A DNA stretch of 35,143 nt from an uncultured Eubacteriales bacterium (GCA_900555785.1 USMO01000002.1:1-35143); one strand, 5' to 3'. Counted from the stretch's first letter, positions 12,811-32,609 are shown. The notes: generated by a model not told the origin, from the sequence alone. Numbers and translations are program-made.

Positions 12811-12850
12811 TTCAATTTTCCACCTTTCTTTTGTTGCCGGCTATACTGAT

Positions 12851-12879: not shown

Positions 12880-12901
12880 GACTGTTTCGACAAATTTCGA
12901 A

Positions 12902-16895: not shown

Positions 16896-16931
16896 TTCGG
16901 CTCTCCTTTTTGAAATCGGATTATTACCTTT

Positions 16932-16969
16932 ATTATACAACTTTTTGACAGTATCTGCTTTATCATTTG
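16932..16969 (-). promoter_or_regulatory. box-dependent promoter P1 (GH78 operon)
   Basis: Minus strand CAAATGATAAAG (16969..16958), 20 nt, TATAAT (16937..16932). The -35 is poor (AAGCAG). Confidence 0.6.
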
Positions 16970-17042
16970 AGAAGATATTATTTACCGTTTATCGCAGGTG
17001 TGCTCTTTATGACAGATCAACAACTGTGAAACAATCAATTTG

Positions 17043-17080
17043 CAAATGATAAAGACAAAACAGCTTTTTTGTACTACAAT
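17043..17080 (+). promoter_or_regulatory. box-dependent promoter P2 (oxidoreductase-like gene 17114)
   Basis: CAAATGATAAAG (17043-17054), 20 nt, TACAAT (17075-17080). Confidence 0.6.
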
Positions 17081-17113
17081 AAAAAAGGGCAAACCCCGAT
17101 AGGGAGGTATATC

Positions 17114-17959
17114 ATGAAGAAAATCGGTTTTATTGACTATTACCTGAGCGAATGGCACGCGAACAACTATCCGGCATGGATCAAGGAGATCAATCCGGAG
17201 TTTGAGATCGCTTATGCATGGGCAGAAGTGGATGTTTCCCCGGTGGACGGTGTAACAACCGATGAATGGTGCGAGAAATTCGGCGTAGAGAAGTGTGCAT
17301 CCATTGAGGAGGTCTGCGAAAAGGCAGACTATCTGATGGTGCTCTCGCCGGACAATCCGGAGCGGCATTTGGATTACGCAAAACGGGTATTCCCCTGCGG
17401 AAAGCCCTGCTACATGGATAAAACCTTTGCGCCGGACGCAGAGACTGCAAGAGCCATCTTTGCGCTTGCAAAGCAATACGGTGTAAAGCTGTTCTCTTCT
17501 TCCGCGTTGCGCTTTGCGGATGAGTTGATCGACTGGCAGGAGCCGCTCCGCTCGGTGACCGTAAGCGGTTCCGGCAGACGGGACATTTACATGATTCACT
17601 TTGTGGAGATTGCCGTGCGGTTGATGGGCGCGGATGTGGAATCGGTTATGGCACTGTCGGGAAGCAAGAATACGGTGCTTGCCATGAAGTACCGGGACGG
17701 ACGGATTGCAAACCTGTGTATGTATGACACCAAGCACGCGCCGGGATTTGCCATCTCTCCCGAGAGCACGGATCCCGAAAAGCGGCTGAACTATGTCAAT
17801 ATCGGCGGCGATTTCTTCAAGCGTCTGATCGCATCCATTCTTGCGATGTTTGACGGCGCGGATGTTCCTGTGAAACCGGAGGAAACCGTAACGGTTATCG
17901 GTGTGATGCAGGCGGCAAGAACCGCAGCGGAGCACCCATGGGTGGAAGTCAGACTATAA
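17114..17959 (+). CDS. Gfo/Idh/MocA-like oxidoreductase (divergent, no canonical GxGxxG)
   Basis: ATG at 17114 with GGGAGG upstream. GKPCYMDKTFA matches the family's GKhVlcEKP segment. Confidence 0.55.
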   Translation: MKKIGFIDYYLSEWHANNYPAWIKEINPEFEIAYAWAEVDVSPVDGVTTDEWCEKFGVEKCASIEEVCEKADYLMVLSPDNPERHLDYAKRVFPCGKPCYMDKTFAPDAETARAIFALAKQYGVKLFSSSALRFADELIDWQEPLRSVTVSGSGRRDIYMIHFVEIAVRLMGADVESVMALSGSKNTVLAMKYRDGRIANLCMYDTKHAPGFAISPESTDPEKRLNYVNIGGDFFKRLIASILAMFDGADVPVKPEETVTVIGVMQAARTAAEHPWVEVRL

Positions 17960-17961
17960 AG

Positions 17962-18000
17962 AAAAAAGCGAAAGAGGCAAAATGCTTCTTTCGCTTTTTT
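17962..18000. terminator. bidirectional terminator between convergent genes
   Basis: AAAAAAGCGAAAGA...TCTTTCGCTTTTTT. Confidence 0.75.
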
Positions 18001-18017
18001 GCGGAATGTCGCTATCG

Positions 18018-20264
18018 TTAGCTTTCCGCTCCGTAGAAAAGCGATTTTCCGGAGACCAATTTCGCCGTTTGCCCGTCCGGCAGAATCAGTTCACCGTCAA
18101 TGCCGTCCGGCAGGTCGATTTCATAGCGCACCTGCCCTTCTTCAAAATGCCACGAGACGGAAATCTTTCCGGCGGGAGAGATAACGGAGCCTGCGGCAAA
18201 ACCGAGCCGCCGGTCAGGGCGCGGGGTGATGCGGACGCGGCGGTAGGCAGGCTCCGCGGGGTTGATTCCGAGCGCCGCGCCAAAGACCCAGTCGAACACA
18301 CAGCCGTAGGAATAGTGATTGAAGGAATTCTTTTCGTCGTCCCAGAAACTGCCGTCCTCGCGGATGCCGTCCCAGTGTTCCCAGATTGTGGTTGCGCCGC
18401 GGTTGACCGAGAACAGCCACGACGGATATTTTTCCTGCAAAAACAGGTTGTAGGCTTCCTTCAGATGTCCCGTTTCGGTCAGAACATGGAGCAGATACGG
18501 CGTGCCGACGAAACCGGTTGCCATACAACCGCCGTTCTGCCGGATCATCTCAAGCAGGGTATCCGTCAGCTTTTCCTTTTCCGCGCTGCCTTCATACAGC
18601 CCGAAGTGCAGAATCAGCACGATTGCCGTCTGCGTCTGTCCGATGACACGGCGGTTGGAAGACAGCCCGTCGAATTTCGGATAGAGGACAGGCAGCCCAT
18701 CCTTCATAAAGAGCTTGCGGAACGCCGCGCGGATATTGCCGTGCAGGGTACGGTACGCCTGCATATCCATGCCGAGCACCTCTCCCGCGCTGACCAGAAT
18801 CTGCGTGACATATGCGAAATAGGCGCTTGCGATCAGGTCGGTCTGCGTAGCGCCCTGACGGACGGCGGGGGACAGATCGGCATCTGCCGCCAGCCAGTCT
18901 CCGTAGTGATCGCCGCCGAGCCACAGATATTCCTCGGGTCCCTGCGCATGGATGAAATCTACCCATTTCTGCATCATGGGGAAGTGGCGGGCAAGCAGAT
19001 CTTTGTCGCCGTAAGCGCGGTAAAGCTCCCAGGGGCAGATGACCGTTGCATCGCCCCATGCGGCGGAAATTTTGGTTCCTCTGCCGGGCACTTTCGGCAC
19101 AACGCCGTAAATGCCGCCGTCCGCGTTCTGCTCCGACATCACATCGTTCAGCCATTTCGTAAAGAACCGTTTGACATCATAATTGATAGCCGCCGTGCGG
19201 ATAAAGACCTGCGCGTCGCCCAGCCAGCCGAGCCGTTCGTCGCGCTGCGGGCAGTCGGTCGGAATGTCGATGAAGTTGCTCCGCTGTCCCCAGAGCGTGT
19301 TCTGATACAGGCGGTTGACCTTCTCGTTTCCGCAGAGGAAGAAACCGGTCTCCTTCATGTCGGAGCAGATCGCCACGGAGACAAAGTTTTCGGGGCGGAT
19401 CTCCTCTCCGGCGGGGAATTCCTCGATCCGGATGTAGCGGTAACCCTGAAAGGTGAAATGCGGCTTGAGGACGCGCGACGTGCCGTCCAGCACATAGGTG
19501 TTGCGGCATTCGGCAAGCTCCAGATTTTTGGTGTAGAAGTTGCCATCGCGGTCGAGCGTTTCGGCGTGGGAAAGCGTTACGCGGTCGCCGGGAGCTCCGG
19601 TGACGGTGATTTCCGCGTATCCGGCAAGGTTTTGCCCGAAGTCAATCACGGTCTCGCCCTTCGGCGTGCGGATCAGCGCCTTGGCGTGAACCCGCGCAAG
19701 TTCGCGCACGGGAACGCCCTCGTCGGGAATCAGCCGGGCGGCGGGAGCGGCGTCGGGAACGGCATTGCCGAGAGATTCTTCTTTAGCCGTAAAGTCATCG
19801 GTTTCTCCGTGGTAGAATTCCGCGGAACGAATCGCATTCCGGTATACTCCCCAGCATTCGTCGGTGACGAGCCCCGTGACCGTGCCGTCCGCCTCCGTGA
19901 CCGAAAGTTCCGCCGCAAGCGAGATGTGGTCGGCAAAGATATGGTTGGTGTTGCCGCGCCCGAGGAAACCGACCGCCCAGCCGTTGGCGCACTGGATTTC
20001 CAGTCGGTTTTCTCCCGGAACGGCGAGGGGGAGCAGATTGTAGGTCTGCACCTGCAGGCGGTTTTGGTATCCGGTAAAGCCGGGGGCGAACAGCGCATCG
20101 CTGACGGGCGTGCCGTTGAGCGTGACGCGGTAAATGCCGACGCAGGTGACGGCAAGGGAAAGCCCGGTTTCGCTTCCGGTCAGCCGGAATGTGCGGGCAA
20201 AGACGGGGCAGGGGCTGATACCGATCTCCTGCGGGGATCGGATCCATTTTGCGCATGAAAGCAT
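18018..20264 (-). CDS. alpha-L-rhamnosidase, glycoside hydrolase family 78 (second copy)
   Basis: 748 aa with AKWIRSP...FRLTG...GIYRVTLNG, CPQRDERLGWLGDAQVF and a six-hairpin-type C-terminal region. Confidence 0.85.
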   Translation of the reverse strand: MLSCAKWIRSPQEIGISPCPVFARTFRLTGSETGLSLAVTCVGIYRVTLNGTPVSDALFAPGFTGYQNRLQVQTYNLLPLAVPGENRLEIQCANGWAVGFLGRGNTNHIFADHISLAAELSVTEADGTVTGLVTDECWGVYRNAIRSAEFYHGETDDFTAKEESLGNAVPDAAPAARLIPDEGVPVRELARVHAKALIRTPKGETVIDFGQNLAGYAEITVTGAPGDRVTLSHAETLDRDGNFYTKNLELAECRNTYVLDGTSRVLKPHFTFQGYRYIRIEEFPAGEEIRPENFVSVAICSDMKETGFFLCGNEKVNRLYQNTLWGQRSNFIDIPTDCPQRDERLGWLGDAQVFIRTAAINYDVKRFFTKWLNDVMSEQNADGGIYGVVPKVPGRGTKISAAWGDATVICPWELYRAYGDKDLLARHFPMMQKWVDFIHAQGPEEYLWLGGDHYGDWLAADADLSPAVRQGATQTDLIASAYFAYVTQILVSAGEVLGMDMQAYRTLHGNIRAAFRKLFMKDGLPVLYPKFDGLSSNRRVIGQTQTAIVLILHFGLYEGSAEKEKLTDTLLEMIRQNGGCMATGFVGTPYLLHVLTETGHLKEAYNLFLQEKYPSWLFSVNRGATTIWEHWDGIREDGSFWDDEKNSFNHYSYGCVFDWVFGAALGINPAEPAYRRVRITPRPDRRLGFAAGSVISPAGKISVSWHFEEGQVRYEIDLPDGIDGELILPDGQTAKLVSGKSLFYGAES

Positions 20265-20301
20265 TTGATTTTCTCCTTATTTTGAATGAGAATTGTTCTT
20301 A

Positions 20302-21162
20302 TTATTTGTTTTCTTTCCTTGAATCGCGGGGACTGATGCCGAAACGAAGCCGATATGCCTTTCCGAAGGAATAGACCGAGGAATAGTTCAGCATTTCCGC
20401 AATCTCGGTTACCTTCAGGTTTTTGTTGCGGAGCAGATAGCGCGCGGTGTTCAGCTTCTTGTCGCAATAGTAGCGCCGCAGGGTGATTGACGTGTTGGCG
20501 CGGAACAGCGTGGAGAGATAATTGTAGCTGTAGCCGAAATATCGGGCAACCTCTTCCAGACTTCGGATGGAATAGATGTGCGTGTCAATGTAATTCATGA
20601 TTTTGCGGCAGAGAATTTCGGAGGGAATCAGCTGCCCGGACGGCTTGTCCGGTTTCTTCTCCCGGAAGTCACGGAGCAGATACAGCAGCAACTGTGAAAA
20701 GATACTGCACAGCAGGGCTTCGGAATCGGGCTGTGGGGAATCCACTTCCGGAATGGCATTTGCAACCAGTTGCCCGATCCGGTCGTCCCGAAAGACGCGG
20801 TTTTCCGGCAGGTAGTTGGCGGCAATCAGTTCTTCCAATGCCTGTATCGTGTCGGGTGCGACCGAATTGAACGCGAAAAAGTCGAATTTCAGCGGGGTAT
20901 CCGTATCCGAGACGATTTTGTGAATATCGGCAGGGAAAGAAAGATAAATATCCCCGGTGGAGATGTGGGACGCGATATTGTTTGTGTATACGGTTCCGGA
21001 ACCGCCGATTGCGATGGTCAACTCAAACAGATTGGGGTGAACGTGTGACGGGATGACCGCACCCGGGGTACAGTATGCTCTCCCGATCTGATGAAGCTGA
21101 AAGGAATCATACAGCGGTTGGTTAAAAAGCCACTCTTTGCAAAAATGGTAATCGAACAGCAT
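20302..21162 (-). CDS. AraC family transcriptional regulator (N-terminal cupin, C-terminal double HTH)
   Basis: 286 aa with C-terminal HTH_18-like LEEVARYFGYSYNYLSTLFR...VTEIAEMLNYSSVYSFGKAYRLRFGISP. Confidence 0.85.
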   Translation of the reverse strand: MLFDYHFCKEWLFNQPLYDSFQLHQIGRAYCTPGAVIPSHVHPNLFELTIAIGGSGTVYTNNIASHISTGDIYLSFPADIHKIVSDTDTPLKFDFFAFNSVAPDTIQALEELIAANYLPENRVFRDDRIGQLVANAIPEVDSPQPDSEALLCSIFSQLLLYLLRDFREKKPDKPSGQLIPSEILCRKIMNYIDTHIYSIRSLEEVARYFGYSYNYLSTLFRANTSITLRRYYCDKKLNTARYLLRNKNLKVTEIAEMLNYSSVYSFGKAYRLRFGISPRDSRKENK

Positions 21163-21187
21163 ATTGGCTCACCTCCTCCTCCTTTTT

Positions 21188-21216
21188 ATTATACCGAAAA
21201 AAGGAGGCTTTGTCAA
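21188..21216 (-). promoter_or_regulatory. consensus promoter of the AraC-GH78 operon
   Basis: Minus strand TTGACA, 17 nt, TATAAT. Confidence 0.7.
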
Positions 21217-21274
21217 CGGTTTGTTTGATAATGTCAAATAAAAAGGCAGAAAATGGAACAAAACGGGCGAAATT

Positions 21275-21338
21275 GTAAGAAATGATATCTTTTTGCGTAA
21301 GAAAAGGCATTTACATTGGAATTGATGTGTTGTATAAT
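21275..21338 (+). promoter_or_regulatory. tandem GTAAGAAA half-sites plus the promoter of the secreted-protein operon
   Basis: GTAAGAAA at 21275-21282 and 21297-21304 (22-bp spacing), immediately upstream of TTTACA (21310), 17 nt, TATAAT (21333). Confidence 0.5.
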
Positions 21339-21531
21339 GAATGCAGAAGTGAAGCGTGTATTTTCTACTTTTTGCACAAAATTTTCATGCAGATCCAAAA
21401 AGAAGAAAAAAGCTTTCACGGATGCACAAAAACCACACAAAAAAGAAAGGAGGTTTCTGTGGCAGAAGCAATGCCTCATGGTAACCCGTAATCTTCTCGA
21501 ATTCTAATTTTAAGGAGGCTTTTTTACAACA

Positions 21532-23010
21532 ATGAAAAAAAGAACCAAACGTCTCATTGCGGTTTGTCTGTTCGTATTTCAGGTTGCACTCGTGTTTGGC
21601 GGCATCTCTGCTTTTGCAGGGCTGAACACCTATGAGGACCTCAGAAGTTACAGCATCTACCGCGTTGACCCTTCCAAGATGACAGCAGACGGTGTTGTCG
21701 GTGCTGACGAACCGTGGGAGAAGGTTCCGTTCAGTGAACCCGTTCGGGTCTACTGGCAGAATCTTGTACCGGATGAAACGCCGGCGAAATTCAAGGCACT
21801 TTGGGGAAGCGACGCTTCCGGTGCGTACCTGTATTTCTGGGCGGAACTGAACGATCCGGACGGTACGTACAACAACGGCGACATTTTCCAGTTCCTGGTT
21901 GACGAAACAGGAACGAGCACCAGCCCCTGCCAGGCAGGCGGCAGTGCAACAGGCCCTTGCCGCAGAACCACGATTCTTTCGCTCCGCGAGGAAACAAAGA
22001 CGGTCGGCAACTGGTTCGAATACACCGTGAAGCGGACCAATGACGGCAAGGACGTAACGGTTGAAGCAAAGTACACCTTCTCGGATGCGAAGTACGCAAC
22101 GGCGAATGCCGAAATCGGTCTGGACTTCCTGACCCAGCGGACAAACAGCGAAGGAAAGTGCATCACCCAGTGGGCTTGGTGCAACAATGATGCCCAGAGC
22201 AAGCCGAACATTGCGGGGCGCGCTACGCTGAAGAAAATCAACGCGGTTGACCTCGGCACGGTTGTGGATGAGGATGACGATGCGGTGTTCTACAATGCGG
22301 GTCTTGCGGTTGCAAGCTGCAAGAAGGACGCAGACGGAAACGTGACGCTTCCGGCAGAGGCTTCGGGCGCGGCTGTTTGCGCATGGAAGAACCGCTCGGA
22401 CAACAAGCTGTATGCGGCGGGCAGTACTTACAAGGTTTCGAAGGCAAACGAGAAATTCGATGCGGTAACACCGAATGTTGCGCTCCTGGAGGGGGCGAGA
22501 GTTCGTTTTGCAACAACCGGCGCGCTGAAATTCGAAGGCACGATCGAAGAGTTCGATGATGTTAAGGACTATGTGAAGAAGGTTGGCATTCTGTTTGTCA
22601 AGACCGCGGATCTGACCGAGGAGATCGCAGGCGCAGGCGCAACGCCCGCTTCGCTGACTGCTGCGGGGATTTCCTTCCAAAAAGCGGAGGCGGATGCCGC
22701 AGCGAGCTTTGAGGGGGTTCTGGAGAACCTGACCGACAAGAATGAGATGTGGTCTGCTCTGCCGTATGTTACGGTGGAACTGGCAGACGGCACAACGACC
22801 GAATTTGCAGGTACTTATACGGAAGAGAACAATTCGAGATCGGTTGCAAAAGTTGCGCAGGCGGCTTACGAGGATCGTTCTCAGCTCAAAAATACCGGCT
22901 ATAAGAACAAAGTGGGCAGTGAATTCGGCGTGACGGGCTTTGAAGTGCTTTCTTTCAGCCCTTATAACAAGACCGAGCTTGCAATTCTCAAAAAAATCCT
23001 TGGAGAATAA
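21532..23010 (+). CDS. secreted protein with an N-terminal CBM9/DOMON-like carbohydrate-binding domain (paralog 1)
   Basis: Signal peptide (..GGISAFA). The pattern ADGVVGADEPWEKVPF...KALWGSDASGAYLYFWAELND resembles CBM9. Confidence 0.55.
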   Translation: MKKRTKRLIAVCLFVFQVALVFGGISAFAGLNTYEDLRSYSIYRVDPSKMTADGVVGADEPWEKVPFSEPVRVYWQNLVPDETPAKFKALWGSDASGAYLYFWAELNDPDGTYNNGDIFQFLVDETGTSTSPCQAGGSATGPCRRTTILSLREETKTVGNWFEYTVKRTNDGKDVTVEAKYTFSDAKYATANAEIGLDFLTQRTNSEGKCITQWAWCNNDAQSKPNIAGRATLKKINAVDLGTVVDEDDDAVFYNAGLAVASCKKDADGNVTLPAEASGAAVCAWKNRSDNKLYAAGSTYKVSKANEKFDAVTPNVALLEGARVRFATTGALKFEGTIEEFDDVKDYVKKVGILFVKTADLTEEIAGAGATPASLTAAGISFQKAEADAAASFEGVLENLTDKNEMWSALPYVTVELADGTTTEFAGTYTEENNSRSVAKVAQAAYEDRSQLKNTGYKNKVGSEFGVTGFEVLSFSPYNKTELAILKKILGE

Positions 23011-23028
23011 AACACGGAGGATATTGCT

Positions 23029-24480
23029 ATGAAAAACATTCGCAAAATTGTTGCCGCCGCGCTCGTAACATTTCAGGTTATTCTGACTGCGGCAGTCGGA
23101 TTTATCCCCGCAAGCGCAGAGGCGGGAACACAAGGGAACGCCTATTCCTATCAAGTGTACAAGGCAGATGCGCCGATTACGGTAGACGGCGCGGTAACGG
23201 AAGGCGAGGCATGGGACAATCTCCCGTGGTCGGAAAATTTCAGTTGGCGTTGGTGTCAGAACAATTGGCATCTGAAGTCGGACTACATTGCTTCTTTTAA
23301 GTCGATGTGGTACAAGAATGCCGACGGAGAAGCATTCCTGTATTTCCTGTTTAACATCAACGACGAGGACGGTTATACGAACGGTGACAAATACGATTTC
23401 GGTATTGACGAAACCGGTATGGCTACGGGTGGACCGGCAACTGCTGCAGATGCAACGATGCGTCGTTCGGGCGGAACTTCTCTTGCAGAAGGAACGCTGA
23501 GCAAGAACACAAGCAAGGGTGACTATTATATGAAGCACGCCGTAAAGCGTGTTGACGCGGAACACCGTGTGACCTTGGAGATTGAATATAAGTTCTATGC
23601 TCCGGAAAACGCTGCGGACGGAAAGACGGTTGGCTTTGAAATCAACATTGAATGGCTGACAGACGGACAGTCGAATGCAATTTGGAGCGGCAACAGAGCC
23701 ACCAGCTGGGGAAGTTGGAACGAGGCGAAAAATTACGGCGCATTGAAGCTTCACGATGCGGCTGCAACCACAAGACGGGCTGCCAATATCTATAACGGCA
23801 ATGAAGTCGTTGTGTCTGCCGACATTACCGAGAACGGCAAATTTACCCTTCCGACAACCTTTGCGGCTTCTTCTAATCAGCTCGTCGGTTGGAAAGACGC
23901 GGAGGGCAAGCTCTACAAGCCCGGTAAGGAACTCACCGGACTCACCGCGAGCGCAACCTTTACGGCTGTGACCGTTGATTTCAAAACGCTTGACGGTGCG
24001 GCTGTCCGTTTTGCCGATCCTACGGGACTGCGTTTCTACTCGCAGGCTTCCAAAGCTGATTTTGACACGCTCGGCGCGGCTCTGACCGCAACGGGGACGC
24101 TGCTTCTTCCCACCGATATGCTCGGCGAGGGCGCGCTGACGCTGGAGGCGCTTGCCGATAAGAAAGAGAGCAAGGATTACCTGAACATCCCGAACAGCGG
24201 CTGGCTGAATGCAGAAACGGCAGAAGCCGACGGTTACTATCAGTTCAGCGGCGCAATCGTGAACATCAAGACTGAAAACTACGATCGCAACTTCTCCGCT
24301 GTCGGTTATTTCACCGTGACCTATGAGAACGGCGAAACCGCAAACTTCTACGGCGGCTATAAGGCGGCGAACGCAACCAGCGTTAAGACGGTTGTAACCA
24401 AAGCGCTGGAGGAACTTGCCGCAAATCCCGGTAAGTATACCGATGCTGAAAAAGCCATTCTCGAATCCTACACGAAATAA
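23029..24480 (+). CDS. secreted protein with a CBM9/DOMON-like domain (paralog 2)
   Basis: Signal peptide (..IPASAEA). VDGAVTEGEAWDNLPW...KSMWYKNADGEAFLYFLFNIND has the same architecture as the upstream gene. Confidence 0.55.
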   Translation: MKNIRKIVAAALVTFQVILTAAVGFIPASAEAGTQGNAYSYQVYKADAPITVDGAVTEGEAWDNLPWSENFSWRWCQNNWHLKSDYIASFKSMWYKNADGEAFLYFLFNINDEDGYTNGDKYDFGIDETGMATGGPATAADATMRRSGGTSLAEGTLSKNTSKGDYYMKHAVKRVDAEHRVTLEIEYKFYAPENAADGKTVGFEINIEWLTDGQSNAIWSGNRATSWGSWNEAKNYGALKLHDAAATTRRAANIYNGNEVVVSADITENGKFTLPTTFAASSNQLVGWKDAEGKLYKPGKELTGLTASATFTAVTVDFKTLDGAAVRFADPTGLRFYSQASKADFDTLGAALTATGTLLLPTDMLGEGALTLEALADKKESKDYLNIPNSGWLNAETAEADGYYQFSGAIVNIKTENYDRNFSAVGYFTVTYENGETANFYGGYKAANATSVKTVVTKALEELAANPGKYTDAEKAILESYTK

Positions 24481-24495
24481 AAGGAGAAACACACA

Positions 24496-24657
24496 ATGAA
24501 AAAGAAGTATTCAATTCCGTTTGCGGAAGCCATTCATTGCGATTTCTGCGATATTCTGACTTCTTCCGACACCGCTACTGAAACCGCTACCAATGCAGTG
24601 GGCCAGAAGGGCGGCAGTAACGGCGACTGCTACGGCGATGATTGCTTTCCAAAATAA
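24496..24657 (+). CDS. 53-aa Cys-rich small protein (not in the supplied ORF track)
   Basis: AAGGAGAA lies 8 nt upstream of the ATG. The product is MKKKYSIPFAEAIHCDFCDILTSSDTATETATNAVGQKGGSNGDCYGDDCFPK. It has CxxC and CxxxxC pairs and no signal peptide. Confidence 0.5.
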   Translation: MKKKYSIPFAEAIHCDFCDILTSSDTATETATNAVGQKGGSNGDCYGDDCFPK

Positions 24658-24687
24658 AATGTCTGACAGATAACGGAGGATTTACCA

Positions 24688-24897
24688 ATGAAAAAACTGA
24701 CAGCAGCTATTCTTGCCTTGCTGATCTGCGTTTTTGCGTTTGCTTCGTGCGGTTCGGATAGCAACAAGCCGTCCGATACGACGCCGAACACGACCGATGT
24801 AGGAACCAAGCAGCAGGATGAGACACCGACAAAGGCAAATTCCGGAAACGAAACCTCTGCGCCTGAATCGACGCGTGAGTGGTCCGACCGCTATTGA
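24688..24897 (+). CDS. small low-complexity lipoprotein
   Basis: 69 aa with lipobox FASC, a Thr/Pro/Ser/Asp-rich tail and a GGAGGA SD. Confidence 0.55.
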   Translation: MKKLTAAILALLICVFAFASCGSDSNKPSDTTPNTTDVGTKQQDETPTKANSGNETSAPESTREWSDRY

Positions 24898-24911
24898 GCT
24901 ATTGATCTTTG

Positions 24912-24950
24912 GTTACAGACGGCGCATCGCGCCGTCTGTAACTTGTAAGT
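24912..24950 (+). terminator. strong hairpin (partial terminator or processing site inside the gene cluster)
   Basis: GTTACAGACGGCGC-atc-GCGCCGTCTGTAAC perfect 14-bp stem, then TTGTAAGTT. Confidence 0.5.
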
Positions 24951-24971
24951 TCGTTACAGAAAGGAACCAAT

Positions 24972-26429
24972 ATGAAAAGATTTATCAGCCTTACCCTTGC
25001 TCTTCTGATGGTGCTCGGCGCGATGGCGCTGACCGCCTGCAAGAAAGACTCCGGGAAGAACCCGTCCGGTACAACAAACAGCACGGCTCAGACCGAAGAC
25101 CCGAACGTCAACGCGGACGAGCACTTCGATGTCCCGAAGCAGGAAATCGGACGCGTGATGACCGCCCTGACCTACAACAGCACCATTCCCGAATTCGGCA
25201 AAGAAGAGGACGAATCGGGTGACTCCGTCAACTATGCGCTGGTTCAGCGGGACAACATTGTCAAAGAGCACCTCGGCATCGAGATGAAGGTTACCTCCAT
25301 TGAAGGACAGTTCGGTTCGATGACCTCCTTCATCGAAACCGTTACCAACACGGTGTTCGGAAATGTGGAGGCATATGACATTGTCGGTGCATACTGTCTG
25401 ATTCCCGTGTCCCTTATGGTCACTGGAATCACCGAAGATCTGAATACCGTTGAGAATGTGGATTTCTCCAAAACATGGTGGTCGGATTTTATTCATGACG
25501 CGGTTACCCTGAACAATAAAACCTACTTCATGTCGGGTGAACTTTCCGCAAACCTGCTGTACAACATGCAGGTCATGCTGTTCAACACCAGTCTGCTCGA
25601 AAACTACAGCGACCTGACCAAAAACGATCTGTACAGCCTGGTTGACAATAACGAGTGGACCATTGATCGCTTCTTTGAGATCGCGTCCGCTCTGTCGCTT
25701 CCGTCCGATACCGTTGACGCGGTGTCCAAGATCTACGCAGTCGGAATGTCTGACCAGAACCAGCTGGACAGCTTCTATATTGCATCCGGACTGCATCTGT
25801 TCGAGATTCAGGACGGTTCTCTTGCAGTTTCGCAGGATACCACTTCCAATAAAGTTCTGAGTCTGTTGGAAAAGGTGAAGAATGCGGCATACGACTCGCA
25901 GATTTTCAACATCAACGGCGGAACGACAGGCTTCAAAACCAACAAGGAAGTCTTTACGATTGCCGCTGTCAAATACGTTAAGACCGATTTTAACGAAATG
26001 AGGGATATCGGGCTTCTCCCGTTCCCGAAATATTCGGAGGATGATTCCTACCATACCCTGCTGGGCAATGACCATGCGGAATATTTCATCACGACCAATG
26101 TAAAGAACAAAGCGGAATCGGGTGCATTCCTGGAAACGCTTGCCTACGCCGGAAGCATTCAGATCACTCCCGATGTTTACTACCGGATCATGAAAAAGCA
26201 GTACAGCAAGGATCCTGATTCTTCGAGAATGTTCGATATTATCCGCGCCGGAACCACCACCGAGTTCGGAATCCTGAGCTATAACCTCTTTGAAGGAGGC
26301 AATGCGCCCGCTTCCATGTTCCGTAATGCGGTTCTGCTGAAGAGAGACTGGGTCTCCTATTACAAGGAATCGTTTGAATCTCCGATGGCAAAGGTCGCGG
26401 ATCAGCTGAACGCATTCTTTGAGGATTGA
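24972..26429 (+). CDS. extracellular solute-binding-protein-like lipoprotein (ABC SBP family 1-like) without cognate permease or ATPase nearby
   Basis: 485 aa with lipobox LTAC. Size and composition are typical of large sugar SBPs. Confidence 0.6.
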   Translation: MKRFISLTLALLMVLGAMALTACKKDSGKNPSGTTNSTAQTEDPNVNADEHFDVPKQEIGRVMTALTYNSTIPEFGKEEDESGDSVNYALVQRDNIVKEHLGIEMKVTSIEGQFGSMTSFIETVTNTVFGNVEAYDIVGAYCLIPVSLMVTGITEDLNTVENVDFSKTWWSDFIHDAVTLNNKTYFMSGELSANLLYNMQVMLFNTSLLENYSDLTKNDLYSLVDNNEWTIDRFFEIASALSLPSDTVDAVSKIYAVGMSDQNQLDSFYIASGLHLFEIQDGSLAVSQDTTSNKVLSLLEKVKNAAYDSQIFNINGGTTGFKTNKEVFTIAAVKYVKTDFNEMRDIGLLPFPKYSEDDSYHTLLGNDHAEYFITTNVKNKAESGAFLETLAYAGSIQITPDVYYRIMKKQYSKDPDSSRMFDIIRAGTTTEFGILSYNLFEGGNAPASMFRNAVLLKRDWVSYYKESFESPMAKVADQLNAFFED

Positions 26430-26439
26430 GGTGCGCCGG

Positions 26440-28245
26440 ATGAAACAACGCAAGCCCAATCGCTGGGTTTTGATTCCGACGCTGCTTCTCCTGCTTGCTG
26501 TTTGTCTGGGGCTGTTTTCCTGTCAGAACACAGAGCAGCCCCCGACCCCCGGGTCGGACGGAAGCGCCGGCGGAAGTACCGCTGTTTCGGAGACCGAGAC
26601 CGAAACTGCGGACGGCGGTAATACCGTCAGAAATGTGACGCTTGCAACGGGCACGAAAGCCGCTTTTACCGTTGTCCGTCCCGATGGCTGTTCTTCTGCT
26701 CTCGAATCAACCGTTGCCTCGTTGGTTGATACCCTCCACCGTGCAACGGGGGCGTGGTTTGTATCCACAACCGATTCCGATTTCAGCGAAACGCCTGTTG
26801 AAAGCTCGATGGAGATTATCATTGGCAACTGCTACCGTGCCGATACCGTGCGGGTGTTGAAGAGTCTCAAATATAAGGATTATGAAATCTGTCTGACGGA
26901 AAACAACATTGTGGTTGCGGCATACACCGATGAAGCCGCTATCAGTGGCGCACAACGTTTGGCACAGATGATCGAAAGCAACACCGTAAAGGACGATCGT
27001 AGCGCGGTTCTGACGTGGAAAAAGGACTACACCTATCGGGCGTTGATCTATAAGCTCAAGGATATCACGCTGAACAACGTTTCCGTGCAGAATTTCCGCA
27101 TCGTTTATCCTGCCAAGGATTCGGTTGCACAAAGCGTGGCAGAGAATATCCAAACGGTAATCGGTGAAGTCTGCGGAGCCGTTCCGGAGGTCGTTCCGGA
27201 TTCCGAGCCAAAGGCAGAGCATGAGATTCTGGTTGGAAATACCGCCCGCAGTACAGAGGAAACCGCTTCGGCAAATCTGCAGCAGGGGCAGTATCTGATG
27301 CTGGCAAAAGGCGGAAACATCTATTTTATCGGTTCGTCCGCAACGCTGACAACCACCCTTGTAACGGAATTCAAAGCGTATCTGGATGCGAAAAAAGGAG
27401 TACTGGACGATATGAATGAACGGAAATCTCTGAATGTTCCCGGTGAGTTTGCCGCAAATGCCGGGGATGTGCGGATTATGGAATACAATGTTCTGGTGGA
27501 ATTCGCAGGTTGGGGTTCGGGTGGAAAAATTCCTGCCGATGTGAATCTGCGCAAGGGGATCATCGCTTCGCTGATCAACGGCTATTCGCCCGATGTGCTC
27601 TGCCTGTGCGAGTTTTTCGACACATGGAGTCAGGAACTGCCGCCGCTGTTGGATTCCAAGTACAAATTCGTAAGCCTGACCCGCCCGGACGGACTGTCCA
27701 ACCGGACTTCGCTGGTCTATAACTCCGAAACGCTGACCCTGATTGAGGGTGGATACGAGGATATCAGCATTCATCCGACAACAGACGCGCCTTGGAACGA
27801 TGATGTGAACCATCGCGTCATTATGTGGGGCGTTTTTGAAGTGAAGGCAACCGGAAAGCGCTTTATGACGCTCGGAACGCATTATACCTCCACGGCAAGC
27901 GCGACTTCCGAACTTACGGCACAGGAGCATCTGGAAGCACAGAAGGTGATGCAGGCAGAAATGACGCTCAAGCGGCTGGATACGCTGAAAAAGACCTACA
28001 ATGTGCCCGCAATTATTCTCGGCGATCTGAATACCGCAAAAGGCTCGGATTGCTACACCACGATCAAGCGTTGGACCGGTTACGGTGACGTGGCGGATTC
28101 CTTCCCGAACGATTATCTTGCCGATCATATTTTCTACGATCCGAACGGATTTTCGCTGAAAAACGCAATTCTGGAGAAAGGGAAAAAAGCGGATACCGCC
28201 TCCGACCATTGGCCGATGATTGCGGACTTTTCCTTTTTGAAGTGA
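26440..28245 (+). CDS. lipoprotein with a C-terminal endonuclease/exonuclease/phosphatase (EEP) domain
   Basis: I chose the ATG at 26440. Lipobox LFSC. EEP motifs: RIMEYNVL, LCLCEF, ILGDLNT, SDHWPMIADF. The N-terminal half has two similar ~120-aa repeats ending in E(I/H)(I/L)(I/V)GN. Confidence 0.7.
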   Translation: MKQRKPNRWVLIPTLLLLLAVCLGLFSCQNTEQPPTPGSDGSAGGSTAVSETETETADGGNTVRNVTLATGTKAAFTVVRPDGCSSALESTVASLVDTLHRATGAWFVSTTDSDFSETPVESSMEIIIGNCYRADTVRVLKSLKYKDYEICLTENNIVVAAYTDEAAISGAQRLAQMIESNTVKDDRSAVLTWKKDYTYRALIYKLKDITLNNVSVQNFRIVYPAKDSVAQSVAENIQTVIGEVCGAVPEVVPDSEPKAEHEILVGNTARSTEETASANLQQGQYLMLAKGGNIYFIGSSATLTTTLVTEFKAYLDAKKGVLDDMNERKSLNVPGEFAANAGDVRIMEYNVLVEFAGWGSGGKIPADVNLRKGIIASLINGYSPDVLCLCEFFDTWSQELPPLLDSKYKFVSLTRPDGLSNRTSLVYNSETLTLIEGGYEDISIHPTTDAPWNDDVNHRVIMWGVFEVKATGKRFMTLGTHYTSTASATSELTAQEHLEAQKVMQAEMTLKRLDTLKKTYNVPAIILGDLNTAKGSDCYTTIKRWTGYGDVADSFPNDYLADHIFYDPNGFSLKNAILEKGKKADTASDHWPMIADFSFLK

Positions 28246-28249
28246 TCCG

Positions 28250-29182
28250 ATGCTGACAAAAGAACAACTCGAAAAAAATCTTGAAGTCCCGCAGGGGCGG
28301 GTCGATGTGATTCTGGACACCGATACCTTCAACGAGGCGGATGATCAGTTTGCACTGGCGTACCTGCTCCTGTCCGGGGAAAAGCTGAACACGGTCGGCA
28401 TCTGCGCCGCGCCGTTCTTCAATGCAAACAGCACCTCTCCCGCCGACGGCATGGAGAAAAGCTACGGTGAGATCCTGCATATTCTCGGGCTGATGCACCG
28501 CGAAGAGCTGATCCCGAACGTATATCGGGGCGCCTGTGGCTATCTGCCGGACGAAAAAACGCCGGTTGTGACCGACGCGTCGGAGTTCATGGTGCGGGAA
28601 GCACGGAAGCATTCGCCCGAAAACCCGCTTTACATCGTTTCCATTGCGGCGGCAACCAATGCGGCGTCTGCCATTCTGACAGATCCGGTTGCAATGACGG
28701 AAAATGTTGTCCACATCTGGCTGGGCGGTCATGCGCTCCATTGGGTGGACACCAAGGAGTTCAACATGAAGCAGGATGTTGCGGCAGCTCGGGTTTTGTT
28801 CGGTTGCGGTGCACCGCTGGTACAGCTGCCGTGTAACGGTGTTGCAAGCGGCTTTACCACGACCGAGCCGGAACTGCGACATTACCTGAAGGGGAAAAAT
28901 CCGCTCTGTGACTATCTGCTTGCGAAGGCAACGGAGGGAATGGACCGTCGTTTCCGGGACATCGCGTGGGACCGTGCCATTTGGGATGTGACCGCCGTGG
29001 GGTGGTTGCTCAACGAAAACAACCGCATGATGCTCTCCTATCTGCGTCCGGCGCTGATTCCGCAATATGACGGAACCTATTCGGAGCAGCCCACGCGGCA
29101 TCCCATGCGCTATGTGTATTTTGTCTGCCGTTACGGACTGATGACCGATCTGTTCCGAAAACTGAGCGGAGCAAATCAATGA
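28250..29182 (+). CDS. nucleoside hydrolase (inosine-uridine preferring, IUNH fold), cytoplasmic
   Basis: 310 aa with the N-terminal Asp cluster ILDTDTFNEADDQFALAY. Confidence 0.75.
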   Translation: MLTKEQLEKNLEVPQGRVDVILDTDTFNEADDQFALAYLLLSGEKLNTVGICAAPFFNANSTSPADGMEKSYGEILHILGLMHREELIPNVYRGACGYLPDEKTPVVTDASEFMVREARKHSPENPLYIVSIAAATNAASAILTDPVAMTENVVHIWLGGHALHWVDTKEFNMKQDVAAARVLFGCGAPLVQLPCNGVASGFTTTEPELRHYLKGKNPLCDYLLAKATEGMDRRFRDIAWDRAIWDVTAVGWLLNENNRMMLSYLRPALIPQYDGTYSEQPTRHPMRYVYFVCRYGLMTDLFRKLSGANQ

Positions 29183-29215
29183 AGCGAAGCGACTGTAAAG
29201 CCCTTCAGAACGCTG

Positions 29216-29254
29216 ACAAAGCCTATCTCGGACAGAGATAGGCTTTGTTTTTTT
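29216..29254 (+). terminator. rho-independent terminator at the end of the gene cluster
   Basis: ACAAAGCCTATCTC / GAGATAGGCTTTGT stem followed by TTTTTT. Confidence 0.8.
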
Positions 29255-29368
29255 GATACAATCAGATGAAGATTCCCCATTGTACAGCCGATTTTTTTCG
29301 TTCAACCTCAGGCATTTCGCCAATAGGTGACGTGCTTGGAAGAAGGCTGAAAAGTTCCTTTTTGCTTA

Positions 29369-30244
29369 TCACCTGTCGGTGTGAGGGGACTTCTCATATT
29401 CGGACGGATTGACACCGAAATAGTTTTTGTAGCTCCGCGAAAAGCTGTGAATGGAGGAATAACCCAACTGCTCGCTGACCTGCGTTACGGTCAGCCCCTG
29501 CCCCAGAAGCCGGTTGGCCTCCTTCATCCGGCAGGAAAGGTAGAACTCATTCAAATGCTTGCCAGTGATGCGGAAGAAGCGCTTGGACAGATAGCTGTAA
29601 TTATAATTGAAGATGTCCTCCAAATCGCGCAGGCGGGTCAGCGCGGCAATGTTGCGCGTGATGTACGTCTCCACCCGGTAGACCAGCACCGCATCGTCGG
29701 TGATTTTCGGGAAATAGCAGTCGTGCCGGTTGTCGGTTCCCGAGCGGATGTAATCAATCAGCATCTCCGCCATCAGGTATCCCGCCATCTCCAGCCGGAA
29801 CGGGCTGTCGCTCTGCAGCTCGGAAAACAGCCGGACAATCAGCGGGCTTTGATCCTGCATGGCAATGCATCTGGCGTTTTCCGCTCGGAACAGGCGTCCC
29901 AGCTCGTCAAACAGATAGGAAAAGGACGGGTTTCCGGGGTTGCGCTCAAAGCCGAGGAACACGAACCGGAGCGGGTCGACGCTGTCGGACATAATGGCGT
30001 GGTTCTCGCCCGGAAAGGACAGCACGCAGTCGTTCTTCTTCACGTGGTTTTGCACGCCGCCCGTCTGAACCGTGCCCGTTCCGGACAGCACATAGGTCAG
30101 CTCATAGCAGCACTGGCTGTGCACCGCAACCGCGGAATCCGCATTGCACCACAGCTCTCCGTACTGATAAAGCGCGAACCCTGCACACCGCAGCCGCTCC
30201 ACGCTGACATTGTCAAAATGGTACTGATACGGAATGTTATCCAT
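29369..30244 (-). CDS. AraC family transcriptional regulator (cupin + HTH)
   Basis: 291 aa with C-terminal VTQVSEQLGYSSIHSFSRSYKNYFGVNP. Confidence 0.85.
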   Translation of the reverse strand: MDNIPYQYHFDNVSVERLRCAGFALYQYGELWCNADSAVAVHSQCCYELTYVLSGTGTVQTGGVQNHVKKNDCVLSFPGENHAIMSDSVDPLRFVFLGFERNPGNPSFSYLFDELGRLFRAENARCIAMQDQSPLIVRLFSELQSDSPFRLEMAGYLMAEMLIDYIRSGTDNRHDCYFPKITDDAVLVYRVETYITRNIAALTRLRDLEDIFNYNYSYLSKRFFRITGKHLNEFYLSCRMKEANRLLGQGLTVTQVSEQLGYSSIHSFSRSYKNYFGVNPSEYEKSPHTDR

Positions 30245-30287
30245 ATTCCTACCTCCCGGAATTTTTCGACAGAGGCGGGGGAGGCTC

Positions 30288-31133
30288 TTACAGCTTCTCC
30301 CGAATGAACCCGACTGCGCCGCGGATGTCCTCCAGCGGATGGTCGCCGGCCTCGCGCTCCAGCGTCAGATAGCCGTCAAAGCCCGCGCGCTTCAACGCTG
30401 CAAGATAGCGGTCCCACGGTACATCGCCCTCGCCGATCGGCAGCTCCGTAAAGGATTTGCAGGCGTTCAGCGCCTCCACACCGCCAATCGCAAAACTGTG
30501 GTAGATCTCCTCGGGCGTCATATCGTCGTTGAGCTTTCTTCCGTCCTTGAGGTGCGTGTGAACAATGTATTTGCCCAGCAGGTCTACCGCCTCTGCGGGG
30601 TCCTGCCCGGTCACCATCACAAAGTTTGCCGGGTCAAGGTTGACGCCAACGCCGCCCTTTGTTCCTTCCAGAAAATGCAGCAGCGTTCTGGCCGGCTCCG
30701 GCCCGGTTTCAATCGCCAGCGTAACGCCGCGCGACTGCGCATACAGGCCGCATTCGGTCAGCGCGCGCTGCATCACGCCAAAGCGCGGATTGCTGTCGTC
30801 CGATGGGATCACGCCGATGTGCGTGGTCACCACTGCCGCGCCGAGATCTACCGCGAGATCCACAATCGCCTTGGTCTTTTCAATCCGCAGGGCGTTGTCC
30901 GCCTCGCGCTCAAAGCCGTAGCCGCCCATGTCGCCGCACAGCGCGGAAATCTCCATTCCGTTTTCCTTCAGAAACGCGCAGAACTCCGTCCGTGCGTCCG
31001 CGTCCAGCACATCCGGGCAGAACGCGCCGGTGGTGGCATAAATCTGCACACCGGTCAGCCCCAGCGATTTCGCGGTCAGAACCGCTTCCCGCACCGGCTG
31101 CTTGAGACAGTCTGTAATCACTCCGAGTTTCAT
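30288..31133 (-). CDS. sugar phosphate isomerase/epimerase (xylose isomerase-like TIM barrel, AP_endonuc_2 fold)
   Basis: I chose the ATG at 31133 (AAAGGAGGA upstream). It shows VTLAIETGPE, VGVNLDPANF and HTHLKDG patterns. Confidence 0.8.
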   Translation of the reverse strand: MKLGVITDCLKQPVREAVLTAKSLGLTGVQIYATTGAFCPDVLDADARTEFCAFLKENGMEISALCGDMGGYGFEREADNALRIEKTKAIVDLAVDLGAAVVTTHIGVIPSDDSNPRFGVMQRALTECGLYAQSRGVTLAIETGPEPARTLLHFLEGTKGGVGVNLDPANFVMVTGQDPAEAVDLLGKYIVHTHLKDGRKLNDDMTPEEIYHSFAIGGVEALNACKSFTELPIGEGDVPWDRYLAALKRAGFDGYLTLEREAGDHPLEDIRGAVGFIREKL

Positions 31134-31180
31134 AACTTGTCCTCCTTTGCCCTGCCTTCCGCAGGGATTTCTCATATTCT

Positions 31181-31218
31181 ATTATACAATAAAACCCCGC
31201 CGGTTTCTTTATCATTTG
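31181..31218 (-). promoter_or_regulatory. box-dependent promoter P3 (isomerase-AraC operon)
   Basis: Minus strand CAAATGATAAAG (31218..31207), 20 nt, TATAAT (31186..31181). Confidence 0.6.
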
Positions 31219-31293
31219 TAAAACAAGTATTTAACAATTTATGTAGACTGAAAATTCGGCAAAAAAATCCATAAATGTTAAACAAGCGGATTG

Positions 31294-31331
31294 CAACAGA
31301 TAAAGACAAAACCGGAATTTGATGCTATAAT
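31294..31331 (+). promoter_or_regulatory. box-dependent promoter P4 (oxidoreductase 31380)
   Basis: CAACAGATAAAG (31294-31305, 10/12 match to the box), 20 nt, TGcTATAAT (31326-31331). Confidence 0.6.
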
Positions 31332-31379
31332 GCAGATAGCGGAAGAATCCGCAAAGTCTTTGAAAATGGGGATGATTCT

Positions 31380-32441
31380 ATGAAAAAACATTGCATTGCG
31401 GTCATCGGTTGCGGAAGAATCGCGCAGAACGCGCACCTTCCGGCATTTACAAAAATGGATAACGTCCGGGTGAAGTACGCCTGCGACCTGATTGCGGAGA
31501 AGGCAGAAAAAGCGGTTCGCGATTTCGGTTGCGAGCAGGCGATTACCGACTACAATATTGCGCTGAAAGATCCGGAAGTGGAAGCGGTCTGGGTGCTGAC
31601 CCCGAACTATGCGCACTACACCGTTACCATGGATGCGCTCCGCGCCGGCAAGCACGTTCTGTGCGAAAAGCCGATTACCGTCAGCTATCCGCTTTCCTGC
31701 GAAATGGCGGCAGAGGCCAAGAAGCAGGGCAAGCTGCTGAACATCGGTGTCTGCAACCGGTATCAGAAGTCGGTTGAGATGATCGAGGCGCTGAACGCTT
31801 CGGGTAAACTCGGCAATCTCTATCATGTTTACTGCTCGTTCCGCAACTATCGCAGCATTCCGGGACTGGGCGGCGCTTTTACAACCAAGGAACAGTCCGG
31901 CGGCGGCGTGCTGATCGACTGGGGTATTCACTTCCTTGACCTGATCCTGTACGTGCTGGGCGGCGCAAAACTCAAGACCGTTACCTGCGACACCTACAAC
32001 GAAATGGCAAAGAACATGAAGGATTATGTTTACAAGTCGATGTGGGCAGAGGATACCAAGGATCTGAACGGTACCAACGACGTGGACGATATGGTCACGG
32101 GCTACATCCGCACCGACAAGGCAAGCATTTCCTTCAACGGCGCATGGGCGCAGAACATCGGCGAGGACGAGATGTTCGTCGATTTCATGGGCGATAAGGG
32201 CGGTGTCCGTCTCCACTACGGAAAAGACTTTGAGTGGTGGACGGTTGAGGACGGCACGCTGATGAAGAAGCAGCCGCTCTACAAGATTCCGGATATGTAC
32301 CAGAAGGAAGACGAGGCGTTCATCTCCGCCATCGAAACCAGCGAGCACACCAAAACGCATATCGATAACATTCTGGAAAGCGCCAAGCTCCTGCAGGCAC
32401 TTTACGATTCGGCTGAGCAGAAGAAGGAGCTGACCTTCTGA
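31380..32441 (+). CDS. Gfo/Idh/MocA family oxidoreductase
   Basis: 353 aa with CIAVIGCGRIAQNAHLPAF and GKHVLCEKP. Confidence 0.85.
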   Translation: MKKHCIAVIGCGRIAQNAHLPAFTKMDNVRVKYACDLIAEKAEKAVRDFGCEQAITDYNIALKDPEVEAVWVLTPNYAHYTVTMDALRAGKHVLCEKPITVSYPLSCEMAAEAKKQGKLLNIGVCNRYQKSVEMIEALNASGKLGNLYHVYCSFRNYRSIPGLGGAFTTKEQSGGGVLIDWGIHFLDLILYVLGGAKLKTVTCDTYNEMAKNMKDYVYKSMWAEDTKDLNGTNDVDDMVTGYIRTDKASISFNGAWAQNIGEDEMFVDFMGDKGGVRLHYGKDFEWWTVEDGTLMKKQPLYKIPDMYQKEDEAFISAIETSEHTKTHIDNILESAKLLQALYDSAEQKKELTF

Positions 32442-32486
32442 AAAAATGAAGGTTGACCGGTTCGATTAGAAAGGTCAAAAGAGAAC

Positions 32487-32609
32487 GCCCCGTGTGTCGT
32501 TCCGTAAAATTATAAGGCAATACCGCGCAATTCCGATGGCACAATCACGAATTGCGCGGTGTTGCCTTCAGTAAGTGAAATTTTACGGAATGGCATACGG
32601 GGCTTTTTT
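32487..32609 (+). terminator. 117-nt near-perfect extended hairpin plus U-tract (elaborate terminator or 3'-UTR RNA element)
   Basis: Outer GCCCCGT/ACGGGGC, 6 bp with three G-T pairs, 12-bp TTCCGTAAAATT/AATTTTACGGAA, then a 20-bp inner helix with one T-G pair, then TTTTTT. Confidence 0.65.

Follow-up and report, generated by a model that had tools for sequence, protein, structure and literature searches.

Four promoters of an uncultured Eubacteriales bacterium share a direct-repeat operator, with an AraC/XylS-family protein as the candidate activator

Genes of the locus

We analyzed a stretch of 35,143 nucleotides from an uncultured Eubacteriales bacterium (GCA_900555785.1 USMO01000002.1:1-35143), referred to here as the window. 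It contains four promoters, in two divergent intergenic regions, that share one element. A preliminary description had reported this element as a 12-bp box, CAAATGATAAAG. The genes behind the four promoters encode an alpha-L-rhamnosidase (GH78a), two oxidoreductase-like proteins (ox281 and MocA353), a TIM-barrel protein (TIM281) and an AraC/XylS-family candidate regulator (AraC2).

GH78a is located on the minus strand at 14616-16895. It encodes an alpha-L-rhamnosidase with a Pfam match to Bac_rhamnosid6H (3.6e-76) and with N-terminal, concanavalin-like and C-terminal domains. A 509-aa open reading frame (ORF) of unassigned function (13133-14662, minus strand) shares 47 nt with its 3' end and is preceded by a GGAGG ribosome-binding site. 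On the strength of this overlap and ribosome-binding site, the ORF is probably the second gene of the GH78a operon. It has no Pfam match, and its codon-position GC is typical of the window's genes.

Divergent from GH78a is ox281 (17114-17959, plus strand). It encodes 281 aa with a weak match to the Gfo/Idh/MocA N-terminal domain (26.3 bits; the cut-off is 24). We rejected a 758-aa plus-strand ORF behind it (17982-20258), which has no Pfam match, as the shadow of a real antisense gene, so ox281 is monocistronic. The real gene is GH78b (18018-20264, minus strand). It encodes a second GH78 alpha-L-rhamnosidase of 748 aa (Bac_rhamnosid6H, 1.2e-107). It lies directly behind AraC1 (20302-21162, minus strand), which encodes a cupin-type AraC family protein as judged by Pfam.

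In the second region, TIM281 and AraC2 form a two-gene operon on the minus strand with a 43-nt gap. TIM281 (30288-31133) is the first gene. It encodes a xylose-isomerase-like TIM barrel (AP_endonuc_2; Pfam, 2.4e-33). AraC2 (29369-30244) encodes the candidate regulator, which has an N-terminal cupin and a C-terminal double helix-turn-helix (HTH). MocA353 (31380-32441, plus strand) is divergent from this operon and encodes a Gfo/Idh/MocA oxidoreductase identified by Pfam.

The four operator-promoters

The window contains three exact copies of CAAATGATAAAG, at 16958-16969 (minus strand), 17043-17054 (plus strand) and 31207-31218 (minus strand). A fourth copy, CAACAGATAAAG, matches at 10 of 12 positions and is located at 31294-31305 (plus strand). 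No exact copy of the 12-mer was found in 100 dinucleotide-preserving shuffles. The copies and coordinates given in the preliminary description were therefore confirmed. The 22-nt match that it had noted between the two plus-strand sites (boxes at 17043 and 31294) was also found. It is TTGCAAnnGATAAAGACAAAAC.

All four boxes end exactly 20 nt before a -10 hexamer (TATAAT, TACAAT, TATAAT and TATAAT). The four sites are the sole matches to GATAAAG-N20-TANAAT in the 35-kb window, which bears out the reported spacing. The -35 equivalents are poor. The best of them is AAGACA (4 of 6 matches), and the others are AAGAAA and AAGCAG. Provided that the predicted -10 elements are real, a box ending at this distance overlaps by 3 bp a -35 element placed at 17-bp spacing. 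The class II geometry that had been proposed for these promoters agrees with this placement and with the poor -35 hexamers.

The box is not the whole element. Ungapped stacking of the four sites revealed a distal half-site, G(G/T)(T/G)AAA, that starts 17 nt upstream of the box in each of them. The distance from this half-site to the GATAAA core of the box is exactly 22 bp at every site. The pattern GNNAAA-N16-GATAAA matches the window in the same four places only. Because a second half-site is present 22 bp upstream at every site, the box is the promoter-proximal half of a two-part direct repeat, whose halves are separated by about two helical turns. In full, the element reads GWTAAA-N16-G(A/G/T)TAAAG-N20-TATAAT.

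The GH78a operon site occupies 16932-16986 on the minus strand. Its distal half-site is GGTAAA (16981-16986), its box is CAAATGATAAAG (16958-16969) and its -10 is TATAAT (16932-16937). The ox281 site occupies 17026-17080 on the plus strand. It contains GTGAAA (17026-17031), the box at 17043-17054 and TACAAT (17075-17080). The site of the TIM281-AraC2 operon occupies 31181-31235 on the minus strand. It contains GTTAAA (31230-31235), the box at 31207-31218 and TATAAT (31181-31186). The MocA353 site occupies 31277-31331 on the plus strand. It contains GTTAAA (31277-31282), CAACAGATAAAG (31294-31305) and an extended -10, TGcTATAAT, ending at 31331.

The ox281 and MocA353 operators (17026-17061 and 31277-31312) share about 81% identity across 36 nt that include the spacer. 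Elsewhere ox281 is the second gene of the MocA353 operon. From these two facts, the ox281 promoter is probably a copy of the MocA353 promoter that was retained or duplicated when the operon was split.

The proximal boxes of each pair are 85 bp apart, center to center, in the GH78a/ox281 region and 87 bp apart in the TIM281/MocA353 region, as had been reported.

The same element in other lineages

The comparison set consisted of contigs from the clusters of AraC2 orthologues and seven species-representative genomes. Synteny was assessed by tblastn. Comparison loci are given by number (L003 to L029). At least seven further lineages of uncultured Clostridia have the same element, in the same register, upstream of orthologous genes. 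Together with the window, this gave 25 unique sites. They share the N16 spacer between cores and the N20 spacer before the -10 without exception. Every one of them has a weak -35 (1 to 4 of 6 matches), and the -10 is TATAAT in nearly all.

The element was found upstream of TIM281 orthologues in L003, L009, L011-L014, L016-L018 and L023. It was found upstream of MocA353 orthologues in L007, L009, L015, L019, L021, L023, L025 and L029, and upstream of GH78 orthologues in L007 and L011. An anchored alignment of 15 promoters gave AAatGtTAAA.Aa, a variable stretch, AAatG.TAAAGAaAa, a second variable stretch and TtgTATAAT. Across species only aaatG(A/G/T)TAAAGA is conserved, and the full 12-mer is not. 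The 12-mer extends this shorter core in a lineage-specific way. The box thus recurs as reported, but the conserved unit is the 22-bp direct repeat with this shorter core, of which the box is half. The distal half is a full box in L007, which contains AAAATGATAAAG, 10 nt and CAAAAGATAAAG.

The gene arrangement behind the element varied between lineages. TIM281-AraC2 operons were found in L003-L006 and L011. In L003-L006 this operon is the only motif-bearing unit within 20 kb. The arrangement TIM281-NH310-AraC2, which includes a nucleoside-hydrolase-like gene, was found in L012-L014 and L016-L018. In L007, MocA353-ox281 is divergent from GH78-AraC2; in L015, the same pair is divergent from AraC2. 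In L023/24, TIM281-GH78-AraC2 is divergent from MocA353. The ox281 gene is directly downstream of MocA353, in one operon, in L007, L015 and L027. This pair is also kept in more distant lineages, among GH78, GH31 and other glycosidases. The clustering of the GH78, MocA353, ox281, TIM281 and AraC2 families behind the motif in L007, L011, L015 and L023/24 agrees with the four-promoter regulon that had been predicted from the window.

The box pairs of the two window regions had been described as inverted pairs. The arrangement exists, but it is not a functional unit. Proximal boxes are 85 bp apart in the first window region, L009 and L024, 86 bp in L023, 87 bp in the second window region and 97 bp in L007. 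Sites in L003, L011-L015, L019, L021, L025 and L029 are unpaired. We rejected a palindromic operator because every promoter carries a direct repeat of its own, the distance within pairs is not constant (85-87 and 97 bp) and many of the orthologous sites lack a partner. The inverted pair is two back-to-back promoters. The difference between 85-87 and 97 bp is about one helical turn and could hint at binding on the same face, with too few independent cases to go further.

L027 and L028 encode an AraC protein (42% identity to AraC2) divergent from MocA353-ox281. They contain a variant, ATGCTAAAT, with different geometry and were left out of the counts. The intergenic region of L027 contains two inverted copies of AAATGCTAAAT, at 6654-6691 (plus strand) and 6846-6883 (minus strand). 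This sequence resembles the distal half-site (GCTAAA for GTTAAA) but does not keep the same register with a -10. To judge by the resemblance, it may represent a diverged operator.

Tests of the motif

An operator-only position weight matrix (PWM) of 38 nt, without the -10, was trained on nine sites from other species. It ranked the four window sites first, with 39.2 bits for MocA353, 33.5 for ox281, 30.7 for TIM281-AraC2 and 24.2 for GH78a. The next best window match scored 15.1 bits, and the maximum over 50 shuffles was 19.1. That next match, at 21228-21265, was rejected as a fifth site. It scored under the shuffle maximum and is out of register with a TTTACA-17-TATAAT promoter at 21310-21338.

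A relaxed pattern with fixed geometry was applied to 223.5 kb of sequence that had not been fetched by pattern. It gave 20 matches (0.03 expected from local shuffles). All 20 are upstream of TIM281, MocA353, GH78 or ox281 orthologues. A strict pattern with 22 specified bases, scanned over 241 million metagenome records, gave 5 matches. Four of these directly precede TIM281 or MocA353 orthologues. The fifth is in a marine TARA contig with no adjoining regulon orthologue and is probably due to chance.

If the element is the operator of a trans-acting factor, MocA353 orthologues that do not adjoin AraC2 should also carry it. They do, in register with a -10. These orthologues were found in unrelated contexts in L019 (98% identity), L021/22 (87%), L025/26 (85%) and L029 (71%). 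Each locus has one site at 28 to 48 bits, with the next best match at 14 bits or less.

The candidate regulator

The C-terminal domain of AraC2 matches HTH_18 (60.4 bits; cut-off, 33.6) and HTH_AraC (40.8 bits; cut-off, 26.6). The N-terminal domain matches Cupin_2 (31.9 bits; cut-off, 27.2) and AraC_binding (31.4 bits; cut-off, 21.1). In the PDB, AraC2 best matches the DNA-binding domains of MarA, GadX and Rns. Among the NCBIfam equivalogs (AraC, RhaS, RhaR, MelR, MarA and others), all matches were far below the cut-off, including AraC at 40.2 bits against 208. Neither RhaS nor RhaR matched AraC2 at E of 1e-5 or less. The matches to these two models belong to AraC1 and are all under the cut-offs. 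Since it falls below every named equivalog cut-off, AraC2 is classed by sequence as an uncharacterized member of the AraC/XylS family.

The AraC2 orthologue family contains 14 clusters with 52 to 100% identity. All of them are from metagenome-assembled genomes (MAGs) of uncultured Clostridia or Eubacteriales. With the exception of L008, described below, AraC2 orthologues (43 to 96% identity) are cotranscribed with or divergent from a motif-driven operon. Because its orthologues lie in or beside motif-driven operons, whereas AraC1 itself does not and has no orthologue in the motif-bearing loci of other lineages, AraC2 is most probably the regulator that binds the operator, and it appears to be positively autoregulated. 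The preliminary description had proposed the same protein as an autoregulated candidate, and the position of its orthologues favors that proposal.

Mechanism and alternative explanations

We propose that the four sites are operators of sigma-A promoters that depend on a class II activator of the AraC/XylS family. The activator would most probably be AraC2, with positive autoregulation. We assign this explanation a probability of about 0.78. The motif has invariant geometry, is conserved across species and is associated exclusively with these gene families and with AraC2 orthologues.

The operator would consist of two half-sites of about 13 bp, aaaWtG(T/A)TAAA, in direct repeat with a core-to-core distance of 22 bp. 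If the -10 hexamer occupies -12 to -7, the operator would extend from about -65 to -31. The proximal half-site would end at -33, overlapping the -35 position by 3 bp, where the hexamer is poor. An AraC2 dimer would bind on a single face of the DNA, each subunit contacting one half-site. Binding of an effector to the cupin domain of AraC2 would then lead to a contact with RNA polymerase that compensates for the missing -35. The effector would probably be a rhamnoside or a rhamnoside breakdown product. The regulon in the window would include GH78a with the 509-aa protein, ox281, TIM281 with AraC2 (positive autoregulation) and MocA353.

Perfect TTGACA-17-TATAAT promoters were found upstream of AraC1 and one other gene in the scanned part of the window (12700-32600). 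A consensus -35 is thus in use in this region, and the weak -35 and near-perfect -10 of the box promoters point to activator dependence. Together with the phasing, which is invariant to the base pair, they match the signature of a class II activator, by analogy with AraC, XylS, RhaS/RhaR and MelR.

Several points weigh against this explanation. We infer AraC2 binding, activation over repression, the transcription start sites and the effector from the sequence. L008 encodes a relative of AraC2 (52% identity) beside a GH78-TIM281 fusion, with no recognizable motif. In L015 the promoter of AraC2 itself does not contain a site. The proximal half-site of TIM281 in L009 is degenerate (ATCAAAG instead of GATAAAG). 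An AraC2 orthologue in the same genome was not demonstrated for L019, L021, L025 or L029. There are 5888 homologues of MocA353 (E of 1e-60 or less) and 14 AraC2 orthologues, so most of these homologues are regulated differently or by more distant relatives of AraC2. Finally, promoters of the MocA353 type have an extended -10 (TGnTATAAT) and a -35 with 4 of 6 matches (AAGACA). They may have basal activity, which makes them compatible with repression too.

The L009 promoter is located at 9010-9064. The AraC2 of this locus is 95% identical to that of the window, and the rest of the TIM281-AraC2 promoter is conserved despite the ATCAAAG. This change may be a natural down-mutation of autoregulation, judging from the aligned promoters.

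The best-surviving alternative, which we consider unlikely, is a repressor operator. AraC2 or another regulator bound at -65 to -31 would block RNA polymerase until an inducer is present. A protein bound there covers the -35 region and could occlude the polymerase, and the MocA353-type promoters described above might fire unaided. However, every one of the 25 unique sites has a weak -35. Even distant lineages keep the distance to the -10 exact to the base pair, which fits a polymerase contact and is needless for occlusion. Cupin-type AraC/XylS proteins with direct-repeat sites abutting the -35 (AraC, XylS, RhaS/RhaR and MelR) are known as activators.

Binding of the box by another protein is improbable, whether by AraC1, whose gene is located between the two regions, or by an unlinked factor. 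Like AraC2, AraC1 belongs to the cupin-type AraC proteins, and its gene is the first of an operon with GH78b; the colocalization of AraC2 with the motif is correlative. However, AraC1 orthologues are absent from all of the 20-odd motif-bearing loci of other lineages. A tblastn search of these loci with AraC1 as the query retrieved only AraC2 orthologues, with 28 to 30% identity. For lack of orthologues there, we set AraC1 aside as the box regulator. AraC1 also has its own consensus promoter, a perfect TTGACA-17-TATAAT at 21188-21216 (minus strand). PWM and pattern scans of the window found no box upstream of AraC1 or GH78b.

A very improbable alternative is that the sites are similar only because duplicated promoter cassettes share ancestry, with no regulatory information. 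The similarity of the ox281 and MocA353 operators would fit this, as would spacers that are similar within close lineages. However, in distant lineages (L003, L011-L015, L025 and L029) the spacers are unrelated, whereas the half-sites, the 22-bp spacing and the -10 are kept. The motif also accompanies genes that are functionally linked and not homologous. The least probable alternative, to which we give almost no weight, reads GATAAAG as the -35 of an alternative sigma factor. As a conserved hexamer or heptamer that always precedes a -10-like element by the same distance, it could be taken for one. However, the 20 to 21 nt from its end to the -10 are too long for a -35/-10 pair, the -10 is the canonical sigma-A TATAAT and the element recurs 22 bp further upstream.

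Other features of the window

A plus-strand operon runs from 21532 to 29182. It is faced by the TTTACA-17-TATAAT promoter at 21310-21338 (plus strand), which is divergent from AraC1 and has no box. It is followed by a strong terminator at 29215-29249. It encodes a CBM9-like protein, proteins of unassigned function, an Exo_endo_phos protein and NH310. AraC1 and GH78b seem to form a regulator-enzyme unit of their own.

A 1035-aa minus-strand ORF (21385-24492) has no Pfam match and atypical codon-position GC. It is probably the shadow of plus-strand genes at 21532-23010 (weak CBM9 match) and 23029-24480. The preliminary gene map had been misread by including shadow ORFs around 17982-24492. Our corrections to the map rest on codon-position GC and Pfam.

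NH310 (28250-29182, plus strand) is nucleoside-hydrolase-like by Pfam. It is the last gene of the plus-strand operon and is convergent with AraC2. In other lineages it lies between TIM281 and AraC2 in the box-driven operon (L012, 9033-9962; L013, 995-1924; L014, 9032-9961). Because it is inside a box-driven operon in these three lineages and outside one in the window, NH310 is likely a pathway member that has escaped from box control in the window.

Short GC-rich hairpins, recognized by eye, lie between the -10 and the ribosome-binding site in the leaders of TIM281 (31139-31166, minus strand) and MocA353 (31339-31356, plus strand). Examples are CCCTGC-GGAAG-GCAGGG and GCGGA-AGAA-TCCGC. Hairpins are also present in the leaders of L007, L021, L023 and L025, and the stems differ in sequence between species. 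RNAalifold on a MAFFT alignment gave no consensus structure. The hairpins may be generic 5' stabilizing stem-loops.

The Rfam scan of the window gave one match, a tRNA at 7571-7656 on the plus strand (RF00005, 54 bits).

Enzymes and possible pathway

The closest solved relatives of MocA353 are DgpA1 (9m3d, 1.2e-42) and DgpA (7xr9, 9.1e-42), over residues 5-284. The match is between members of a family and not between orthologues. DgpA and DgpA1 are Gfo/Idh/MocA proteins of gut bacteria that oxidize C- and O-glycosides at C3 before nonhydrolytic cleavage (PMC8563793, PMC11239390). The 5,888 homologues of MocA353 (E of 1e-60 or less) have generic names such as "Gfo/Idh/MocA family oxidoreductase."

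MocA353 resembles dgpA in its setting. It is found together with a gene for a xylose-isomerase-like TIM-barrel protein, as dgpA is with dgpB/C. TIM281 differs in that it is not DgpB/DgpC-like as judged by sequence, with no detectable match. Searched by sequence against the PDB, it matches 3tva, Art22 and tagatose epimerases.

L008 encodes a single 1029-aa protein (6822-9911, minus strand) that contains GH78 domains and a TIM281-like AP_endonuc_2 domain. It is divergent from the gene for the AraC2 relative, and no box-type motif was found in the intergenic region. The fusion argues for functional coupling of the two enzymes.

Cytoplasmic processing of rhamnosylated glycosides is a plausible function for these genes. 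GH78 would remove rhamnose, and the oxidoreductase and TIM-barrel enzymes would carry out further sugar removal or modification. A more specific reading is tentative, and we think it more doubtful than likely. It holds that the operator defines a previously unrecognized AraC2-controlled pathway for the breakdown of rhamnosylated plant glycosides in uncultured gut Clostridia, with DgpA-like oxidation-elimination. Substrates such as flavonoid rutinosides or neohesperidosides would be processed in the cytoplasm. After GH78 removes rhamnose, the widely conserved MocA353-ox281 pair and the TIM-barrel protein would remove the remaining sugar by oxidation-elimination and not by hydrolysis. The signal sensed by AraC2 would be the glycoside or an intermediate. 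If this is true, the L008 fusion and the strict coregulation mark a new enzyme module. A weaker addition is that the spacing of the divergent operators (85-87 and 97 bp) might reflect cooperative same-face binding of two AraC2 dimers.

In the literature on dgp-type or GH78 clusters that we consulted, which is not a full survey, no described regulator or operator was found. As far as this search reached, an operator for these genes has not been described before. For organisms that are known from metagenomes alone, the results define a concrete operator together with its candidate regulator and a regulon. Within this regulon, a GH78 rhamnosidase is linked with the DgpA-like oxidoreductase and its conserved 281-aa partner, and with a TIM-barrel protein. 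Further regulon members can be retrieved from gut metagenomes by means of the motif. The AraC2/operator pair, expressed heterologously, could report an inducing dietary glycoside.

Comparison with known systems

At araBAD, Escherichia coli AraC binds the direct-repeat half-sites I1 and I2. They are about two helical turns apart, and the proximal one overlaps a weak -35. AraC2 also contains a cupin and a double HTH, and its putative operator is a 22-bp repeat with a 3-bp overlap of the -35. It differs from AraC in its score (40 bits against the equivalog cut-off of 208), and the half-site sequence is unrelated. No distal looping site like O2 was identified here. The host is a Gram-positive of the Clostridium type, and the regulon is not one for arabinose catabolism.

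XylS binds two direct-repeat sites 21 bp apart at Pm of the TOL plasmid, and the proximal site overlaps the -35 by a couple of base pairs. It is an effector-dependent activator with the half-site TGCA-N6-GGNTA, and its effectors are benzoates. The element described here is likewise a direct repeat, of 22 bp instead of 21 bp, with the proximal half overlapping the -35. It differs in half-site sequence and effector class, and the relation between the proteins is by shared Pfam domains.

E. coli RhaS and RhaR are AraC-family activators of the rhamnose genes. Their sites extend to about -32 and overlap the -35, in divergent promoters, and their operon is positively autoregulated. They bind half-sites of 17 bp in inverted repeat. 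The likeness lies in the link to rhamnose and in positive autoregulation, which is predicted here. In contrast, the repeats here are direct, and the regulon contains a rhamnosidase and DgpA-like and TIM-barrel enzymes and no rhamnose catabolic genes. The regulatory logic here is an ordinary, textbook AraC-type arrangement, and the half-site sequence is its own.

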